Source: a virus. Taken from it: a stretch of 64,000 nucleotides of DNA. Each line of letters opens with the position of its first letter. Positions within the stretch are counted from its first letter, which is position 1. A program made the position numbers and the translations under genes. Positions 627-32,371 of the stretch are shown in pieces. The notes beneath the pieces were generated by a model. It was given only the letters and a program-made list of their open reading frames with translations, searched no databases and had not been told where the DNA came from. The stretch is from positions 32,001-96,000 of IMG/VR virus record IMGVR_UViG_3300029268_000006, one strand, 5' to 3'.

Positions 627-923
627 TCACCCCCATTGACTTCTAAGTTCGTCCCCTGCATCATCATCCCCATCTAACCAATTGGCTGCCATTGTAGCGG
701 AATTATTCATATCATAAACTTCATCCGGATTCCATTGATCATAAACTTCATCCGGATTCCATTGATCATCAACTTGATCGGTGTCCATTTCTTCTTCAAT
801 GACTTGAATTTGAGCATCAAGTTGTGCATGATTATCTTCCCCAAAAAAATTAAAGTGTGGGGCCTTTTCTTTTTGTCCTTCTAATAAGGAAACCATTTCA
901 TTTCTTTCGGCAAGTGTTCTCAT
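627..923 (-). CDS. Acidic hypothetical protein
   Basis: 98-aa ORF preceded by a TAGTTTTG (TAnnTTTG) element at 951-958; contains DQWNPDEVY twice. Confidence 0.7.
   Translation of the reverse strand: MRTLAERNEMVSLLEGQKEKAPHFNFFGEDNHAQLDAQIQVIEEEMDTDQVDDQWNPDEVYDQWNPDEVYDMNNSATMAANWLDGDDDAGDELRSQWG
711..769. repeat. 27-bp in-frame tandem duplication
   Basis: ATCATAAACTTCATCCGGATTCCATTG at 711-737 and 738-764, plus a partial third copy. Confidence 0.95.
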
Positions 924-1562: not shown

Positions 1563-2558
1563 ATGATATTAGATGAATTTGTTTTAATGTATTGGAATAA
1601 TTATGATAAAAAATATTATGTTGATAAAGGATATGTTTTCACAAAAAGATTTGATAAATTTGAAGTAAATATTAAAGATTTAATGTTGTGTAGTAACTTG
1701 AAGATAAATGTTAAATGCGATATTTGTGGTAAAGAAAAACTATTATCATATCGTAAATATTTAAAAAATATGAATAATGGTGATTATTATTCTTGTTCTC
1801 AGAAATGTTCTCATAATAAATCTAAACAAACTAGTTTAAAAAATTATGGAGTGGAACATTATTTACAATCTGATATTGGTATAAAAAGAATACAAAATAC
1901 ATGTTTGGAAAGATATGGATTTGAAAATGTATCTAAAAACAATGAAATAAAAAAAAGGAAAAAACAAACTTGTTTAAAAAATTATGGAACTGAATATCCA
2001 AGTCAATCGAAAGAAATACAAGAAAGATATAAACAAACTTGTTTAAAAAAATATGGTTGCGAATGGCCTTGGTTAAATATAGAAGTGAAAGAAAAAGTTG
2101 AAAATACTATGTTAAAAAAATATGGAACAAAAAACCCAACACAAAACATAAATATAATGAATAGTATAATTCAAACACAAATAGATAAATATGGTGAAAT
2201 TTGGAAAAATCATGTTCCTAGATATAATCCAAATTCAATAATGTATTTAGATTTAATATCAAAAAAATTAAATATACCAATTCAGCATGCTTTAAATGGT
2301 GGTGAAAAGAAATTCATAAAATATTGGATAGATGGATATATTGATAAATATAATATATGTATTGAATGGGATGAAGAATGTCATAATTTAGAAAATGATA
2401 AAAAAAGAGATGAATATTTAAAAGATAATTTTAATTGTAAAATGATAAGAATTAGACAAAAAACATTTCTTAAAAATATAGATATTGAAATTGAAAAAAT
2501 AGTTGATGAAATAAATGATTATATTTTATCATTAAAATCGTATGAAAAGAAAAAATAA
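1563..2558 (+). CDS. Free-standing putative homing endonuclease (CDxC Zn module, K.T.L..YG repeats, Vsr/DUF559-like C-terminal domain)
   Basis: KCDICGKEK; repeated KQTCLKNYG; C-terminal YWIDGYIDKYNICIEWDEECH. Confidence 0.7.
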   Translation: MILDEFVLMYWNNYDKKYYVDKGYVFTKRFDKFEVNIKDLMLCSNLKINVKCDICGKEKLLSYRKYLKNMNNGDYYSCSQKCSHNKSKQTSLKNYGVEHYLQSDIGIKRIQNTCLERYGFENVSKNNEIKKRKKQTCLKNYGTEYPSQSKEIQERYKQTCLKKYGCEWPWLNIEVKEKVENTMLKKYGTKNPTQNINIMNSIIQTQIDKYGEIWKNHVPRYNPNSIMYLDLISKKLNIPIQHALNGGEKKFIKYWIDGYIDKYNICIEWDEECHNLENDKKRDEYLKDNFNCKMIRIRQKTFLKNIDIEIEKIVDEINDYILSLKSYEKKK

Positions 2559-2644: not shown

Positions 2645-4252
2645 TTAGATTTCAACTGCTTCAATCTTGTGAATCAAAGCCTGACGATCTTGTTCCAACA
2701 TTTTCATTAAATCGAAAACTTTATCTGAAAATCCAGCCAAAGCGTAAACTTTGTTTTCTGGGAATTGTAAAGTTCCGTAACCTTTAAGGTCAATAGAATA
2801 GATATGAGACTGACATTTATACTTTTTACAGTATTCTTTGAAAGTTGTTGTTGGTGCGTGATATCCAACCCAACCTTGTTCATCAGATAAAATAATTATT
2901 CTATCGTAAGCTTTATTGGCTTTTTGAAAGATACTATGGAAATTAGTACCAGCACAAGCGAACTTGTAAATGTTTGTAATAGTCATCAAACTATCAGATG
3001 GGTTATAGTTTTTGTATTCTGCATGATCATCAAATCTCATCAAATCACAACCATTACGTTTTGCGATAGCGGCTGCGAATTGTGCACCAGCTTCAGCACA
3101 ACTAATTGTACTTTTTGCTACTTTATTTGATGTCATAGAACCAGATGTATCTAAAACAACCAATGTTTCACCATCAAATTTCGGAATATTATTAAGTGAA
3201 ATTTCAGTAGCTTCGTTGATGGCAGTTAGAACTTTTCTGTATTTAGAATCCGAAGTACCAAGACTTTGTAATTCTTTGTAAGCTACAAGAAATCTGAATG
3301 GTAAAACCAATGATTTCTTAATTAACTTTTCATCAGTTAAAAGTTCACAAGCGACATCAATCATTTCCGGTGCTTGTTCAACAATGTTTCTTAGGTTACG
3401 AAGTAAAGCGAAGTAACCGATTTTACGTTCACTAAGAAGCTTTGTCCAAGCGTCTTTTTTAAGGTCTTGTTTTTCATCTTCATTGTTAGCTATTTGACCA
3501 GCTTTTGACAATTCAGATTCCCAAGTGTCTTTACTACGAAGTAAATCAATTACAAGTGCTTCAAGAGCGTGAATTTTGATAGTTCCACCTTCTTGTGATT
3601 TAACCCAATTAAGTTTCTTTTCAATTTCTTTCTTATCTTCAGCTTTCTTTTTCAAAGATAATTTCTTGTTAAGTATGTCAATGTATTCTTGACGATTAAC
3701 AGTTACCAAAAATTTATCACCCTGTGTTGGTACTGGGTGTACCAAGTTGGCAATATCAACTAATTTGAAGTCTTTACCTTCACCTCTCCATTTTCCAAGT
3801 TGGTATGCATCGAATCTTGAAATAGCTTCAGCGAAGCCTTTTTTCATCGAATTGGTAATTTTGTTGTCTTTCTTTTTCATGTAGTAAGCCAAGATTTCCA
3901 TCATATCATCCGGTCTACGGACAATTTTGTTATAGAAATTTTTTGCCCAAGGTAAGTTGGACAAATATTTAGCCAATTCAGCAGCTGTAATATGTGATAT
4001 GGATCTCATACCAAATTCATTACGGGCATAAAGTGCAGATTTAGCTACAAAATCCGGTTGTGTCTTACCAATAAGATCAATCAATCTGTTATTGGTTTGT
4101 TCTTCAGTTTCGTAAAAAGAATTCTGTACAAAGGATGTTAACAAAATAGAAACTAATTCTAATTTATTTGATTCTTTGTAGGCTTCACCACCTGCTAAGT
4201 TAACAGTTTTTTCTGCTTTGTAAGCAACTTTTTTTTCATTGAATTTTGACAT
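2645..4252 (-). CDS. rsr: Ro60/TROVE-domain RNA-binding protein with C-terminal vWA domain
   Basis: NLAGGEAY; LYARNEFGMRS; FDAYQLGKW; DIANLVHP; TWESELS; YFALLRNLRN; vWA MIDAS DTSGSM; IILSDEQ. Confidence 0.95.
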   Translation of the reverse strand: MSKFNEKKVAYKAEKTVNLAGGEAYKESNKLELVSILLTSFVQNSFYETEEQTNNRLIDLIGKTQPDFVAKSALYARNEFGMRSISHITAAELAKYLSNLPWAKNFYNKIVRRPDDMMEILAYYMKKKDNKITNSMKKGFAEAISRFDAYQLGKWRGEGKDFKLVDIANLVHPVPTQGDKFLVTVNRQEYIDILNKKLSLKKKAEDKKEIEKKLNWVKSQEGGTIKIHALEALVIDLLRSKDTWESELSKAGQIANNEDEKQDLKKDAWTKLLSERKIGYFALLRNLRNIVEQAPEMIDVACELLTDEKLIKKSLVLPFRFLVAYKELQSLGTSDSKYRKVLTAINEATEISLNNIPKFDGETLVVLDTSGSMTSNKVAKSTISCAEAGAQFAAAIAKRNGCDLMRFDDHAEYKNYNPSDSLMTITNIYKFACAGTNFHSIFQKANKAYDRIIILSDEQGWVGYHAPTTTFKEYCKKYKCQSHIYSIDLKGYGTLQFPENKVYALAGFSDKVFDLMKMLEQDRQALIHKIEAVEI

Positions 4253-4298
4253 AATAATCCTTTCTTTTTTATTTTTTGTTTGTTTGTAATTTAAAGTT

Positions 4299-4342
4299 AA
4301 AAAAAAAAGGGACTATCGAAATAAATTTCAGTAGCCCCTTTT
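4299..4342 (-). terminator. Intrinsic terminator between the Y-RNA cluster and rsr
   Basis: Minus strand GGGGCTACTGAAAT-TT-ATTTCGATAGTCCC followed by a run of about 10 T. A second perfect hairpin, GACATTCA-TTTC-TGAATGTC, lies at 4346-4365. Confidence 0.75.
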
Positions 4343-4375
4343 GGTGACATTCATTTCTGAATGTCTTAATCTATA

Positions 4376-4611
4376 GATGAAGAAAACGATAAGTGAGATG
4401 TGAAATTTAGGTTTTCACTAAAATGAAAGATTTATCATCTTTCATATTCAACCCCGATTTTGGGTTAATTGGAACCTTGACTTTTTGGATGTCAAATCCT
4501 CGGTTTTAGGTAGAACCGAACCACCTGTTATCACCTTATTGGTGATAACGTTTCTGATGCCCGAAGGCTTCTTCCATAATTGTCGAAGTAACACTCAATC
4601 TTACTATCATC
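4376..4611 (-). ncRNA. Large Y-RNA-like ncRNA (about 236 nt) with seven internal hairpins
   Basis: The 5' end GATGATAGTAAGATTGAGTG pairs with the 3' end CATCTCACTTATCGTTTTCTTCATC, and TACTTCG follows the 5' strand. Hairpins at 4400-4418, 4423-4445, 4450-4466, 4477-4495, 4500-4519, 4527-4549 and 4559-4568 (cUUCGg). Confidence 0.7.
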
Positions 4612-4625
4612 AGTAAATATTATAA

Positions 4626-4685
4626 GGAGTAAATCTAAAATAACTTTTTTTCATTTCCTACGAAGTAAGTTATTTTATCACTACC
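4626..4685 (-). ncRNA. Minimal Y-RNA-like ncRNA (60 nt)
   Basis: GGTAGTGA-TAAAATAACTT pairs with AAGTTATTTTA-GAT-TTACTCC (11-bp perfect upper helix); TACTTCG lies at the stem-loop junction. Confidence 0.7.
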
Positions 4686-4756
4686 TTTTTTAAAAATCAT
4701 TAAAATTAAGAACGTTTGTTTTATTTATATTTCAAAAAAACATAAAAGTTTAAAAA

Positions 4757-4865
4757 ATTGTAAAGATATTTTTTTAAGAGTTTTGATAAAAAGCGACTTT
4801 TTGGTGCTTTCTATTGGAGTCGAACCAATTAGAACCGAAGTATCTCTTAAAATTGCTATTACAAC
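4757..4865 (-). ncRNA. yrlA: YrlA-like tRNA-mimic Y RNA (about 109 nt)
   Basis: Closing helices GTTGTAA/TTACAAT and TTTTAAGAG/CTCTTAAAA; TACTTCG; perfect T-arm ATTGG-TTCGACT-CCAAT (4813-4829); loop-closed acceptor-like stem AGAAAGC/GCTTTTT; adjacent to a Ro60 gene. Confidence 0.8.
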
Positions 4866-4955
4866 ATTTATTTTATATATTTGTCAAAAAAAGTCTATTT
4901 TTTCCATTTTTGATAAATATACATCTTTTTTATTAAGAAAAAAATAAAAAGTTTA

Positions 4956-7382
4956 TTAAATATTATATTTTTTTGGCCAAAATTGTTTTTTTTGTGAATT
5001 TGGCCAAAATAATGGATTTTTATTTTCATCATCATTTTTTCTAAATGGGTCAGGTTCTCTCCAAGGATTTCGTTTAAATATTTCGTTTGAATCATCTTCT
5101 CTCCAAGGATTATTTGGTTTAATAGAATTTATTTGTGACATCACATCAACTTTATTTATGAATTGTTTTCTAGCTAATCTGAATGATTTGTAGTTTATTG
5201 TATTTTCAAGTGGTGCAGTTTCTAAGAAATTTTTAACAATTTCTTTTTCTATATCTGTTGCATTAAAGTCAATATAAGTGTCAATTATATTTTTCCAATC
5301 AATATGACTATAAATAGTTGCCAAGTTTATAATTGACATCACACAGTCATCAGTACCACTTTGAGATTTATATGTCACTTCACCATTTGCCAATTCTTTT
5401 TTGGAGAATGAACTTAATTCTATTATGGTTCCACTGTGATGTAATACCATCGCGTCTTTTTTGATACAATCTTGAAAATCTTTTATCATTAGTTTCTTGC
5501 CTTTTTCTCCACTTTTCACAAGGAAACCAACAGTTAGGTAAGTATCAGTTTCATTTTGTTTGTAACGAACAAATACCGAATCACCATAATTGTTGATATC
5601 ATTAAATACATGTTTCATATTATCTAGAAGTCTATCACCCAGATTTTTATTTTTTTCAAGAACTATTTTTACTTTTTCAGAATCGAATAATTCAAATCCT
5701 ATTAAATATAATATATGTGATATTTCATTTGCGTTATAAATATTATTTTGAAAAACACCAATTTGTTCCAATTTAAATAAATCATATTTGCTTTCATACA
5801 TTAGTCTTTTTCTATTTATAATATCTTTATCTTTCATCATTAATCTAAAAATATTTATCACAGTGTAATTTTGTGCAAGTCCTTCACCCATGTCAATTCC
5901 TATAAATATATTATAATTTTTTACTTGTCTAATATCAAATAGATCCGGTCTATTTTTTATCCATTTTAAATCTGTATAAGGAAATTTTAATTTATTTTCA
6001 AATTGTGGTATTTCTTTATATTCAAATGGTGTTTCATTATTAGTTAAACTTTCAAATATAATACTATCAAATAATAAATTTTGATCTGTTATAAATTGAA
6101 GTCCGTATTCTTGTTTGAATTTATCTTCACCACCTATAAGATTTGTTTCTTCTTCTTCCCAATTAGAAATATATGCAATTTCAGTAAAAGGAATTTCACT
6201 TTCAAATTCCATATTGTCATCTCTTGTTTCTAAATTTGTTGCAATTCTTAATGAACGGATACTGGAAATATCAGATTGAAGTGATGGGGTTATTTCATCA
6301 TCTTCGTAAAATTTAATATGATGTATAGCTATACCATCAAGTACCTTATCATAAAGTTTATAACCCAATTCATTTCTCAAATAATTCAAAACATAACCTT
6401 CAGTTAATCCGTGTTTTTTGAGTTTGTCGTCAATGAATTTTATTTTAGTATCCCTCCTACCTTTTATTTGATACCAATAAACTTTAAGTGCTTTATATGG
6501 GTTTTTATGTGGATCACCTTCTGGTAATTCGGCATCTCTTAATAATTCAAAGAATAAATTTCTACCGTCCGGGGTTGATGTAATAATAATTTTTGAATTT
6601 GTAATTGATGATACAGTTGGTACAACGGATGAATAATAAGCTCTAATTATATTATCTGGAATTTTAGCAAACTCATCGAGATATAGTAAATCTATTGTAA
6701 AACCAATGGCCGGTTCTTTGGATCTATTTTGTGTTTGTATTCTACTACCATTTTCAAAAGATAGTGATCTTTCGTTCCAGTTGTTTATACCGGCCTTTAA
6801 GTAGAATGGTAATAATTTATATATGTCTTTTATTTTTCTTATAATTTCTTTAACAGTATTAGATACGTTAGCAACAACCATAACCCCTTTATCTTTATTA
6901 AATAAAACAGTCCACAACATTACAATTGCAGCACTAACTGTATTTAAACTTAAAATATCATTTGTATAATAACTATGTTCATTGGATTGAATTGATAAAT
7001 CGAACATAGAAACTTTATAGTTTTGTTTAATAATAGATTTTATTTTTGATGGACCCCTTTTGGTTAAAACTATATCATCGTGTGTTAAATCTTTAACAAA
7101 TTTAATTATATGATTTTCACAAAAAACACCATGAACATCCGCACAATTTAATTTAATACCATTTTCCAATTTTAGTGTATAAAATGTATATGGTTGTGTT
7201 AAATTAATTTCTTCAATTGGAACAAAACCATAATCTGTTTCGACTAATAAATTTTCTAATGGTAAAAAATTTAATATTTTTTTTGTTTCATCATTTTCAT
7301 CTAAATCTATGTTTCTATATTCATAATTTTCTAATTTTTCAATTAAAAAATATATAATATTTCTTAATATTTTCTTAAACAT
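4956..7382 (-). CDS. terL: Terminase large subunit, C-terminal fragment fused to a long C-intein (IntC aa 1-147)
   Basis: Hint motifs LNCADVH and MFDLSI...YYTNDILSLN|TVSAA (junction 6942/6941). T4 gp17-like motifs follow: LLYLDEFAKI, IIITSTPDG, nuclease GIDMGEG and GTDDCVM. Confidence 0.92.
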   Translation of the reverse strand: MFKKILRNIIYFLIEKLENYEYRNIDLDENDETKKILNFLPLENLLVETDYGFVPIEEINLTQPYTFYTLKLENGIKLNCADVHGVFCENHIIKFVKDLTHDDIVLTKRGPSKIKSIIKQNYKVSMFDLSIQSNEHSYYTNDILSLNTVSAAIVMLWTVLFNKDKGVMVVANVSNTVKEIIRKIKDIYKLLPFYLKAGINNWNERSLSFENGSRIQTQNRSKEPAIGFTIDLLYLDEFAKIPDNIIRAYYSSVVPTVSSITNSKIIITSTPDGRNLFFELLRDAELPEGDPHKNPYKALKVYWYQIKGRRDTKIKFIDDKLKKHGLTEGYVLNYLRNELGYKLYDKVLDGIAIHHIKFYEDDEITPSLQSDISSIRSLRIATNLETRDDNMEFESEIPFTEIAYISNWEEEETNLIGGEDKFKQEYGLQFITDQNLLFDSIIFESLTNNETPFEYKEIPQFENKLKFPYTDLKWIKNRPDLFDIRQVKNYNIFIGIDMGEGLAQNYTVINIFRLMMKDKDIINRKRLMYESKYDLFKLEQIGVFQNNIYNANEISHILYLIGFELFDSEKVKIVLEKNKNLGDRLLDNMKHVFNDINNYGDSVFVRYKQNETDTYLTVGFLVKSGEKGKKLMIKDFQDCIKKDAMVLHHSGTIIELSSFSKKELANGEVTYKSQSGTDDCVMSIINLATIYSHIDWKNIIDTYIDFNATDIEKEIVKNFLETAPLENTINYKSFRLARKQFINKVDVMSQINSIKPNNPWREDDSNEIFKRNPWREPDPFRKNDDENKNPLFWPNSQKKQFWPKKYNI

Positions 7383-9555: not shown

Positions 9556-10089
9556 TTATTCTACATATTTTAGAATTTTATAAAGAAATAATTTAGTTTT
9601 TTCAATAATGGTTAATTTTCTATATTTTTTAAGCGTTTCGTAATATAATTCACCAATTGAAATTTTAAAAATATATCCATTTTCATCTTTTAAATTTGCT
9701 AACGTATTGAAAATTAAGCACTTACCGGATTGTCTACTAGCCATTAGTATCGAATATCTGTTTTCAGTATATAATTTTATAATATCTTTTTGGTATTCAC
9801 GAAGTTTCATTTGTCCGATGCTACCATCTTCCAATTTAATTTTACAGTAGTGTTCCGCGAAGTAATATACAGATAATTTACATCTGACATATTCACGTAT
9901 CTCTTCTTCTGTCATAGCGAATTTTAATCCCGGTCTTCTAATACCCGGATTATTCTTAAACCACAGTCTTTCAGTTAGTTTAAGTGGTAATGCTAATCTT
10001 TCTTTCTCTTGAATTTCTTTAACTTTTTCAGTAGTTAATATGTGACTTTGATCAATATTTTTATTTTTGGGTGATGTTGTTTTTGCCAT
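9556..10089 (-). CDS. terL: Terminase large subunit, N-terminal fragment fused to a short N-intein (54 aa)
   Basis: gp17-like YYFAEHYCKI, LREYQKDII, ILMASRQSGK|CLIFNT; the intein Cys1 codon is at 9720-9718. Confidence 0.92.
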   Translation of the reverse strand: MAKTTSPKNKNIDQSHILTTEKVKEIQEKERLALPLKLTERLWFKNNPGIRRPGLKFAMTEEEIREYVRCKLSVYYFAEHYCKIKLEDGSIGQMKLREYQKDIIKLYTENRYSILMASRQSGKCLIFNTLANLKDENGYIFKISIGELYYETLKKYRKLTIIEKTKLFLYKILKYVE

Positions 10090-10149
10090 AATTGTATTTA
10101 TTTCTTTTTCAACGTATTATATATATTAAATTTTTAATGTCATTTTTTT

Positions 10150-10177
10150 AAACTTAATTTCATATTTTATTTATAAA
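10150..10177 (+). promoter_or_regulatory. AAACT(T/A)-N16-TAT(A/T)AW bipartite motif, candidate middle promoter class
   Basis: The same 16-nt spacing occurs at 10150-10177(+), 16824-16851(+), 50608-50635(+), 4724-4751(-), 33524-33551(-) and 36174-36201(-), upstream of nucleotide-metabolism and replication genes and a Y RNA. Confidence 0.5.
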
Positions 10178-10193
10178 AAAATAAAAATTATTA

Positions 10194-11015
10194 ATGAATA
10201 GAACAGAAATTTTAGGAACTGGAAATAAAAATATTTTAGTATTAACTGGTGTTCATGGAAATGAAATATCACCAGTTTATGCTGGATATATATTAAAGAA
10301 ATTTGATTTTGATAAATCTAAATTTAAAAAATTAACAATTTTAAATGCTGTAAATACTGATGGAATAAAAAACAATATAAGGGAAATTCCAAATGATAAT
10401 ACTAGTGATTTAAATAGAATGTTTAAAGTTGATTTTGATAATAATATATCTATTGATGAATTAACAAAATTATTTAATGATAATGATATTATTATTGATG
10501 TACATTCATCTCCAAGATGTTGTGAATTTATATTGTTAAATCAGGATGAAACAACAAATTCGTATGTTGAATTTGCATTAAAACATGATATTAAATATCT
10601 TATTCGTTATTCTGATTCAAATACAATTAAGAAATACGGTTTAGATAAAGGGAAGATTAGTTTTACAATTGAAATAAATCAAATGAATTATATTGATTAT
10701 GATAGTGCAAAAAGATGTTCCGAATTGATAATTAATATTATAAATAATTGTGATGATTTTAAATTAACTTTATGTGAACCCAAATACGATGAATTTTTTG
10801 AATTTTTCACTTATAAAGATGGATTATTTTTACCTAAAGTAAAAATTGGTGATATTATATCAGAAGGTGATTGGTTGGGTGAATTGTTGGATCTAACTAC
10901 TTTTGATACAGAAAAGATTTTTTATAGAAAAGATAGAAAGTCTAGAATTATATGTAGTGGTGAAAGTCAATATGTATCCGCTGGGAGAAGTATGTTCTTT
11001 TTACAACCAGTTTAA
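10194..11015 (+). CDS. Succinylglutamate desuccinylase/aspartoacylase (M14-like Zn hydrolase) family protein
   Basis: GVHGNE, DLNRMF and IIDVHSS motifs; C-terminal barrel-sandwich-like VKIGDIISEGDWLG. Confidence 0.8.
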   Translation: MNRTEILGTGNKNILVLTGVHGNEISPVYAGYILKKFDFDKSKFKKLTILNAVNTDGIKNNIREIPNDNTSDLNRMFKVDFDNNISIDELTKLFNDNDIIIDVHSSPRCCEFILLNQDETTNSYVEFALKHDIKYLIRYSDSNTIKKYGLDKGKISFTIEINQMNYIDYDSAKRCSELIINIINNCDDFKLTLCEPKYDEFFEFFTYKDGLFLPKVKIGDIISEGDWLGELLDLTTFDTEKIFYRKDRKSRIICSGESQYVSAGRSMFFLQPV

Positions 11016-31657: not shown

Positions 31658-32371
31658 TTACAGTTTTAGATAATTGAAAAATTCACCAATTGTAATTTCC
31701 TTTATTTCTTTGGTTTTTTTATTTTTAATTTTTATGTGAGTATTTGATTTACAGCACTTACCAACTCCAGTTTCACCAAGAAATACATTGAATGTTGATT
31801 TATCCCATCCACCGTGCAAAAGTGTGTCTACACTAGACCAACCGGATGTTATTTTATTTTTGGAAACTTCTTGTTTATGTGATTCTGGATCATCAAAATC
31901 GTCACCCAAATCTTCTTCATCTTCAAGTATTGATATATTACTAAATACTGTTTTTACTTTAGATAAAACATCGACAACATTATCATAATCTATTTCTTTC
32001 AGATTACGAATTAAGTCTATAACAGTATATGTTTTGTTTTTTAAATCATTTGATAATTTCCAAGCTTTGAAATGTCTTTCCAACCATTCTTTATCGTGTA
32101 CGGAATTGTCATTTTTTAGTAATGTTTTTATGACATTATTATTTATCTTTTCTTCCGGATCATTTAATTTGATCATCGCAACAATTTGTTGTGGTGATGC
32201 TACATTTTTTGTTATAATATATTCATCTTTTACTATTTTAAATATAAAACGAATTTCATCGTTTTTAAAGAAATCTGGTTCTACATTTAAGAATTGAGAT
32301 GAATGATCCATTATCCAAGTGAAGAAAAATTTCTCCATTTGAACATTCATCGTTTCTTTATCATTACTCAT
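31658..32371 (-). CDS. gp41: Replicative helicase, N-terminal fragment plus short N-intein (32 aa)
   Basis: GWSSVDTLLHGGW..TFNVFLGETGVGK|CCKSNT (Cys1 at 31756-31754). Confidence 0.92.
   Translation of the reverse strand: MSNDKETMNVQMEKFFFTWIMDHSSQFLNVEPDFFKNDEIRFIFKIVKDEYIITKNVASPQQIVAMIKLNDPEEKINNNVIKTLLKNDNSVHDKEWLERHFKAWKLSNDLKNKTYTVIDLIRNLKEIDYDNVVDVLSKVKTVFSNISILEDEEDLGDDFDDPESHKQEVSKNKITSGWSSVDTLLHGGWDKSTFNVFLGETGVGKCCKSNTHIKIKNKKTKEIKEITIGEFFNYLKL

Follow-up and report, generated by a model that had tools for sequence, protein, structure and literature searches.

Y RNAs are thought to be modular, combining a handle that binds Ro60 with a module that chooses the partner, and to our knowledge the only well-described module of the latter kind in bacteria and phages is a tRNA mimic that recruits PNPase. 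In the YrlA family (Rfam RF02553), the RNA adjoins the Ro60 gene (rsr) in the same orientation, a long stem interrupted by an internal loop is formed from its two ends, the 5′ strand of that stem is followed by an element of the YUAY type, and paralogs with differing inner modules occur at one locus (PMC4201824). The Ro60 protein of Thermus phage phiLo binds two Y-like RNAs (Yrl1 and Yrl2) that are encoded directly upstream and forms a complex with the host PNPase (PMC12135203). A comparable layout is found in a 64,000-nucleotide (nt) stretch of viral DNA (positions 32,001 to 96,000 of IMG/VR record IMGVR_UViG_3300029268_000006; hereafter designated the window), in which a 236-nt element (hereafter RNA 3) lies 124 nt upstream of an open reading frame (ORF) with TROVE and vWA_Ro60 domains and has the same, minus-strand orientation. 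Judged from comparison of its sequence with those of its relatives, RNA 3 is probably a Y-type Ro60 partner RNA, in which a handle shared with YrlA-type RNAs carries a cargo of hairpins and four tandem H-type pseudoknots.

The window is AT-rich phage DNA within a 132-kb virus record, whose completeness of 19% by CheckV indicates a very large phage, and RNA 3 is situated in a 703-nt intergenic region between the gene for the terminase large subunit and the Ro60/Rsr ORF. The nearest solved structure to the encoded protein is phiLo Ro60 (9KOP/9L5Y; E 2.7e-28), its closest relative among GenBank phages belongs to a 635-kb uncultured phage (49.6% identity), and ten further protein relatives (P0002–P0011) are 62–81% identical to it. 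The phiLo system provides an experimental precedent for RNA binding and for a RYPER-like complex with PNPase; the phiLo RNAs, compared here by description only, were found via a CGAA motif, and no pseudoknot array has been reported for them (PMC12135203). Unlike YrlA, RNA 3 contains no tRNA-like module, that is, no T-arm, acceptor-like hairpin, or D-arm, and its inner module is predicted to consist of hairpins and tandem pseudoknots.

Several small H-type pseudoknots placed head to tail, whose stems could stack, are known from the upstream pseudoknot domain (UPD) of the tobacco mosaic virus (TMV) 3′ untranslated region (UTR), which has three consecutive pseudoknots (PMC4683447), and from the pseudoknot string PK2–PK4 of tmRNA (PMC1168896), in which the number of units varies among relatives as it does in the RNA 3 family. 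The likeness is one of build, not of membership or homology: the UPD belongs to the 3′ UTR of a plant plus-strand RNA virus, whereas the cargo of RNA 3 lies within a small RNA from a phage with a DNA genome, and RNA 3 shares no sequence similarity with either system, has no tRNA-like end, and gives no tmRNA match with ARAGORN or Rfam. None of the papers searched connects Y RNAs with modules made of pseudoknots. The initial annotation, made from the letters of the window, had proposed an undescribed Y-RNA architecture, and this holds as far as Rfam 15 and the literature searched, in neither of which a Y-RNA architecture with a pseudoknot array was found.

Structure and conservation of the 236-nt element

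The 236-nt element is more than a chance structure. Its minus strand folds with a minimum free energy (MFE) of −68.6 kcal/mol, compared with −47.0 ± 4.2 kcal/mol for 200 dinucleotide shuffles, none of which was as good (z −5.2). The plus strand of the same interval gave a z of −4.4, and six G·U pairs within the units described below favor the minus strand, being A·C mismatches on the plus strand, versus one pair favoring the plus strand. The closing stem is formed by pairing of 4611–4607 with 4380–4376 and of 4600–4592 with 4395–4388. It had been placed correctly in the initial annotation, together with the two perfect 9-bp hairpins (4549–4527 and 4445–4423) and the C(UUCG)G tetraloop hairpin (4568–4559), all of which belong to the minus strand, and the island was likewise rightly described as richer in GC than its surroundings (41–42% across 4450–4599 versus 14–31% in the flanks). 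The count of seven hairpins was fair, the MFE structure having eight inside the closing stem, one of them marginal, but a string of hairpins under-describes the cargo: for four of them, a role as second stem of an H-type pseudoknot is the better reading.

The Rfam scan suggested in the same annotation gave no match to a described family, returning nothing at the gathering score across the whole window and nothing meaningful at E ≤ 10 across 4200–5000; RNA 3 is thus not a member of Rfam YrlA. ARAGORN found no tRNA and no tmRNA in the window, and blastn of the intergenic region against GenBank phages yielded only a 51-nt chance-level match to Enterococcus phages. By protein-guided and pattern scans, homologous RNAs were located in five other contigs (L001, L173, L185, L093, and L213), in all cases immediately upstream of Ro60 and in its orientation; of the 82 loci obtained in a 15-mer scan of viral contigs, only an already known relative was real. 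Among the six RNAs, including that of the window, the first 28 and the last 12 nt are nearly invariant and the interior is strongly divergent. Covariation across homologous loci, another check that had been suggested, was indeed observed: RNAalifold on the three most alignable sequences gave 69 pairs, 19 of which are kept through compensatory changes on both sides.

These comparisons also bear on whether the region is an RNA gene at all. Two short ORFs overlap it, one of 48 aa (4448–4594, minus) and one of 43 aa (4485–4616, plus), as might be expected if the region were a short protein-coding gene or acted at the level of DNA. Both ORFs are, however, ruled out by frame-breaking indels, since gaps of 1 and 2 nt recur along both when the window is aligned with L001; moreover, the homologous region of L001 contains no ORF of at least 60 aa, and the changes are compensatory for RNA pairing. 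We consider it extremely improbable that the region is anything other than an RNA gene.

The handle and its association with Ro60 loci

From its 5′ end, the handle that RNA 3 has in common with YrlA-type RNAs comprises a lower stem, an RGYRA element, an 8-bp upper stem, and UACUUC(G/A) in front of the insert; on the 3′ side, the upper-stem strand is followed by UUUUC(U/C) and then by the lower-stem strand. In RNA 3, both the MFE structure and RNAalifold pair the two ends, and between the 5-bp lower stem and the upper stem there is an internal loop containing AGUAA (5′ side) and UUUUC (3′ side). The upper stem corresponds to RNAalifold columns 12–14/248–250 and 17–20/243–246, and its GAU/AUC is changed to GAG/CUC in L185. 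The UUAC at 4591–4588 is the counterpart of the conserved YUAY found after the 5′ stem strand in YrlA, and RGYRA occupies the position of the NCGAA contact motif of YrlA (PMC4201824), which is replaced in the window by AGUAA, differing from CGAA at two positions; L093 and L213 have AGUGA. The initial statement that the element resembles neither YrlA nor tRNA is therefore valid for the cargo, for which there is no YrlA match at E ≤ 10 and no tRNA or tmRNA match, and not for the handle. The designation as a Y-like RNA, in turn, is supported by the comparison, in view of the co-oriented position upstream of the Ro60 gene and a stem module common to Ro60-linked RNAs.

The handle is statistically tied to Ro60 loci. 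Its 5′ signature, defined as RGYRA, 8–11 nt, and UACUUCR, gave 165 matches on the Ro strand when 128 Ro60 loci were scanned (79 loci with matches) versus one on the opposite strand, and 1.37 Mb of control viral DNA from unrelated loci yielded 3 matches. Within the 64-kb window it occurs exactly three times (4857, 4682, and 4605), always on the Ro strand and in this one intergenic region. The 53 non-redundant handle-bearing RNAs that were tabulated have inserts of ~20–40 nt (bare loop), ~80–110 nt (T and D arms), or longer, and UUUUC(U/C) follows the upper stem in all of them, this motif having been required for entry into the table. The same handle surrounds another 20 RNAs that have T-arm motifs, with D-arm motifs also present in 17 of these, and the asymmetric T and D arms of such YrlA-type carriers set the orientation of the handle. 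Textbook YrlA RNAs, with a T-arm, an acceptor-like hairpin, and a D-arm, are present upstream of the gene in L002 and L003 (Ro60 identity 35–36%); their stems have the same handle as RNA 3, and they are detected by the RF02553 model below the gathering score (48.4 bits, E 8.5e-10 for L003; 41.4 bits, E 4.4e-8 for L002). By locus and handle, RNA 3 is most likely a Y RNA paralog.

Hairpins and predicted pseudoknot units of the cargo

The 188-nt cargo contains two conserved hairpins followed by four abutting units that are predicted to fold as compact H-type pseudoknots (PK1, PK2, PK3, and the terminal PKz). Comparison of the homologues showed that the GG and 1–3 additional nucleotides in front of the inner ‘hairpins’ pair with the first nucleotides of the loop, which end in CC. 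A unit of 23–26 nt accordingly consists of the 5′ strand of the first stem (S1), the 5′ strand of the second stem (S2), the 3′ strand of S1, an A-rich third loop of 3–5 nt, and the 3′ strand of S2, with a GG-initiated S1 of 3–5 bp and an S2 of 5–6 bp. Each 3′ strand of S2 is immediately followed by the GG of the next unit, so that the units could stack into a rod.

The topology is fixed by PK2, whose AUCC complements the upstream GGAU, not the downstream GGUU, and whose S1 covaries at pairs 3 and 4 (GGAU/AUCC versus GGUU/AACC and GGUA/UACC in the homologues). The S2 of PK3, which has one mismatch in the window, is fully paired in L001, and in L185 it shows covariation (CCGAU/AUCGG versus CUGAC/GUCAG). 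A PKz-type terminal unit also occurs in L133 and L141, with the S1 GGUC/GACC in L141 and L093; the hairpin inserted into PKz (4445–4423) is entirely unlike its L001 and L185 counterparts in sequence and has no equivalent in L213 and L093. In L133 (GGUU/AACC) and L141 (GGUC/GACC), which are more distant, a single unit of this type abuts the 3′ strand of the handle in hairpin-rich Y-like RNAs.

MAFFT did not yield structure-consistent alignments for either whole RNAs or single units, and pairs were instead counted by script. Five RNAs contributed the 22 curated units, in which 77 of the 78 S1 cells and 115 of the 117 S2 cells are paired, and when the 3′ partner of S1 was slid by 1–3 nt, just 20–45 of the 78 S1 cells paired. 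To limit curation bias, the GG and CC anchors were then held fixed and the two inner positions scored in 25 units; 39 of the 50 positions pair, compared with 28.0 on average after permutation, and a value of 39 was not reached in any of 20,000 permutations. Six complementary S1 tetramers are represented (GGUU/AACC, GGUG/UACC, GGUA/UACC, GGUC/GACC, GGAU/AUCC, and GGAA/UUCC). Moreover, pairing between the 5′ flank and the loop was found for 4 of 12 MFE hairpins with loops of at least 7 nt in these RNAs versus 5 of 684 for the remainder of the window. In these sequence comparisons, both stems of the pseudoknot units covary.

A Y-type Ro60 partner might, alternatively, carry independent hairpins as its cargo, with the GG and CC being conserved single-stranded protein-binding motifs. 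The nested MFE structure already accounts for most of the fold energy, and an invariant GG/CC core could well be a sequence motif; independent hairpins, however, explain neither the covariation of the inner S1 positions through six complementary combinations, nor the specific complementarity within PK2, nor the matched change from GGUU/AACC to GGUC/GACC between the single-unit RNAs of L133 and L141, and we regard such a cargo as unlikely. Three other assignments were tried and rejected. The units are alike in topology to preQ1-I riboswitches and gave no Rfam match to them; the GGA motif expected of a CsrA-type sponge is mostly absent; and a T-loop reading of GGUUCC...AACC was dismissed since the loops covary with downstream sequence.

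Several points weigh against a Y-type RNA with a pseudoknot cargo. The GG/CC core of S1 never varies and is therefore uninformative on pairing, four units in L213 and L093 have an S1 limited to this 2-bp core, and several units drawn without a first loop cannot form every terminal pair simultaneously. The unit table was curated by hand, and many of its units are orthologues, not independent samples. A loose automated scan for tandem units failed to separate these RNAs from GC-rich background: over 3 Mb, it called chance arrays in GC-rich loci and missed the window array owing to one mismatch and one insertion, thus providing no evidence either way, and pseudoknot finders used without the GG requirement also called AU-rich units. 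As to the handle, the strict CGAA or GNCGAAN0-1G motif is missing from the 5′ strand of RNA 3, whose length of 236 nt is about twice the 80–130 nt of characterized Y RNAs including YrlA. Finally, L091 and L171, the closest Ro60 relatives (81% identity), are without this RNA.

Table 1 Predicted features of the Ro60 locus in the window, and homologues of RNA 3 (positions of the latter refer to their own contigs)
Feature	Positions	Strand	Basis or remark
Y-like RNA 3, 236 nt; handle with hairpin and pseudoknot cargo	4376–4611	minus	fold z, homologues, RNAalifold
Lower stem 5′ strand, GAUGA; pairs with 4376–4380	4607–4611	minus	invariant across all homologues
AGUAA, RGYRA element; AGCGA/AGUGA in relatives	4601–4605	minus	signature scan, 53-RNA table
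Upper stem 5′ strand (GAU, two unpaired nt, AGUG); pairs with 4388–4395	4592–4600	minus	RNAalifold
UUACUUCG motif directly 3′ of upper-stem 5′ strand, YUAY-like	4584–4591	minus	YUAY: PMC4201824
Hairpin with C(UUCG)G tetraloop	4559–4568	minus	kept with other stem sequence in L001, L185, L173
9-bp hairpin with conserved UAUC core	4527–4549	minus	in all homologues with compensatory changes
PK1; S1 5 bp, S2 6 bp	4500–4525	minus	curated table; conditional test on MFE hairpins detects S1
PK2; S1 GGAU/AUCC, S2 5 bp, A5 loop	4477–4499	minus	curated table, covariation
PK3; S1 GGUU/AACC, S2 5 bp with one A·C mismatch	4454–4476	minus	curated table
PKz, terminal; S1 GGUU/AACC, S2 GUGAA/UUCAC; 9-bp hairpin 4423–4445 in first loop	4400–4453	minus	curated table
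UUUUCU, 3′ strand of handle	4381–4386	minus	invariant in homologues
Y-like RNA 1, T-arm only	4758–4865	minus	signature match 4857, fold
Y-like RNA 2, bare loop; ends approximate	4620–4700	minus	signature match 4682, fold, stem covariation with L001
Small trailer hairpin, between RNA 3 and terminator	4346–4365	minus	read from sequence; absent in L001
Intrinsic terminator, ~14-bp stem then U10	4299–4338	minus	read from sequence
Ro60/Rsr ortholog, 535 aa	2645–4252	minus	Pfam TROVE 2.8e-20, vWA_Ro60 8.7e-11
Terminase large-subunit gene	4956–7382	minus	
L001 homologue of RNA 3	2691–2919		Ro60 identity 79%
L173 homologue of RNA 3	2150–2412		Ro60 identity 70%
L185 homologue of RNA 3	2150–2409		Ro60 identity 69%
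L093 homologue of RNA 3	667–886		Ro60 identity 65%
L213 homologue of RNA 3	9979–10237		

The RNA cluster and its possible roles

The intergenic region would encode three paralogous Y-type RNAs on the minus strand upstream of the huge-phage Ro60, of which RNA 3 would be the third and largest (Table 1). Y-like RNA 1 has the same type of handle and a canonical T-arm (5 bp, UUCGACU loop), has no D-arm or anticodon arm, and gives no YrlA match at E ≤ 10. In Y-like RNA 2, the handle surrounds ~20 nt, and its upper stem covaries with that of L001 (AAAAUAAC/GUUAUUUU versus AAAAGAGU/ACUCUUUU). The cluster is closed by the intrinsic terminator 46 nt before the rsr start codon, and an equivalent terminator is kept in L001, L185, L093, L213, and L173. 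A separate promoter for RNA 3 was considered at TATAAT (4624–4619, 7 nt upstream of 4611) and rejected; the box is not conserved, L173 having none there, so that a transcript shared with RNA 2 is no less likely. As RNA 2 ends ~18 nt upstream of RNA 3, the RNAs may be cut from one precursor, as in M. smegmatis, where a single precursor gives rise to both rsr and the Y RNAs (PMC4201824).

This arrangement might also suggest that RNA 3 is a cis-acting leader or processing cassette of the rsr transcript, controlling terminator read-through or mRNA stability and not acting in trans. The RNA follows the upstream RNAs and precedes rsr, all on one strand, the short gap between terminator and rsr contains no promoter-like match on the rsr strand, and the M. 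smegmatis precursor provides a precedent. On the other hand, a strong terminator separates the RNA from rsr in every homologue, the closed handle is the same as that of stand-alone YrlA-type and bare-loop RNAs, and L091 and L171 keep the terminator and rsr in the absence of RNA 3. A role confined to cis is thus quite unlikely, and we retain the reading of RNA 3 as a Y-type partner of Ro60.

The number of pseudoknot units differs among the homologues, with three in L173, four in the window and L001, and five each in L185, L213, and L093. L091 and L171 retain both upstream RNAs, and the lack of RNA 3 in these two contigs indicates that it is dispensable for Ro60 function. Rapid turnover of the cargo, three to five units, and presence or absence in close relatives would fit an arms-race element, namely a phage decoy or sponge that acts independently of Ro60, with possible targets such as a translation factor, a defence sensor, or a nuclease of the host, and whose handle just protects the ends; in TMV, a translation factor is bound by the tandem pseudoknots of the UPD. 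Such independence from Ro60 is hard to reconcile with the handle being the most conserved part of the RNA and statistically tied to Ro60 loci, and no candidate target was identified; we judge a decoy to be even less probable than a cis-acting leader. The sponge for hairpin-binding proteins or toxins that the initial annotation had put forward is neither favored nor disfavored by the sequence comparisons.

Other hairpin-rich RNAs and elements were noted at related loci. In L133 (2240–2340) and L141 (2255–2375), the cargo has three or four GNRA-capped hairpins and a GCCGAAAGGC element common to both. The 635-kb uncultured phage (LR745206.1) contains, at 1633–1925 of L215, an unannotated long Y-like RNA with a 238-nt insert and two pseudoknot-like units, located upstream of the phage Ro60 gene and beside a bare-loop Y-like RNA at 1545–1620. 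A conserved hairpin element of ~120 nt is located between the last Y-like RNA and the terminator in L091 (2340–2470) and L093 (890–1000) and is also present in L213; its counterpart in the window is only the 20-nt trailer hairpin. Within the rsr ORF, the handle heptamer TACTTCG is found four times in 300 nt on the minus strand (3257, 3405, 3415, and 3543), against an expectation of 2.3 copies for both strands of the whole window. The sites fall in three different reading frames (DLLRS, GYFAL, ALLRN, and LGTSD), with codons unusual for an AT-rich genome, and three of them recur in L091 and none in L001; the cluster may be due to chance or to an action of Ro60 on the mRNA that encodes it. In the terminase large-subunit ORF, an intein-splicing domain is weakly matched (E 5e-4).

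If RNA 3 is a Y-type partner RNA with a pseudoknot cargo, its handle would dock on the phage Ro60 ring, by analogy with characterized Y RNAs, and the cargo would replace the tRNA-like module of YrlA. By the same analogy, including that with phiLo (PMC12135203), the inner module would determine what the Ro60 particle engages, and the locus would offer Ro60 three such modules, that is, a T-arm only, a bare loop, and a pseudoknot array. The four abutting pseudoknots may stack as a rod serving as an alternative effector or adaptor, giving Ro60 a partner or substrate range different from those conferred by the T-arm and bare-loop paralogs. More tentatively, and with considerable doubt, tandem pseudoknots may form a recurrent third effector class of huge-phage Y RNAs, beside the tRNA-mimic and bare-loop classes, with a rigid rod, a partner other than PNPase, and a unit number that selection would raise and lower. 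Were this so, the partner might be, for example, the translation apparatus, as for the TMV domain, or a host RNA-targeting defence nuclease.

If a Y RNA with a string of pseudoknots does occur alongside paralogs of the T-arm and bare-loop types, the handle would prove to be a general dock for very different modules. RNA 3 would also give a defined construct for asking what role the phage Ro60 plays during infection, and the 23–26-nt pseudoknot unit would be of structural interest as a natural stackable RNA building block.
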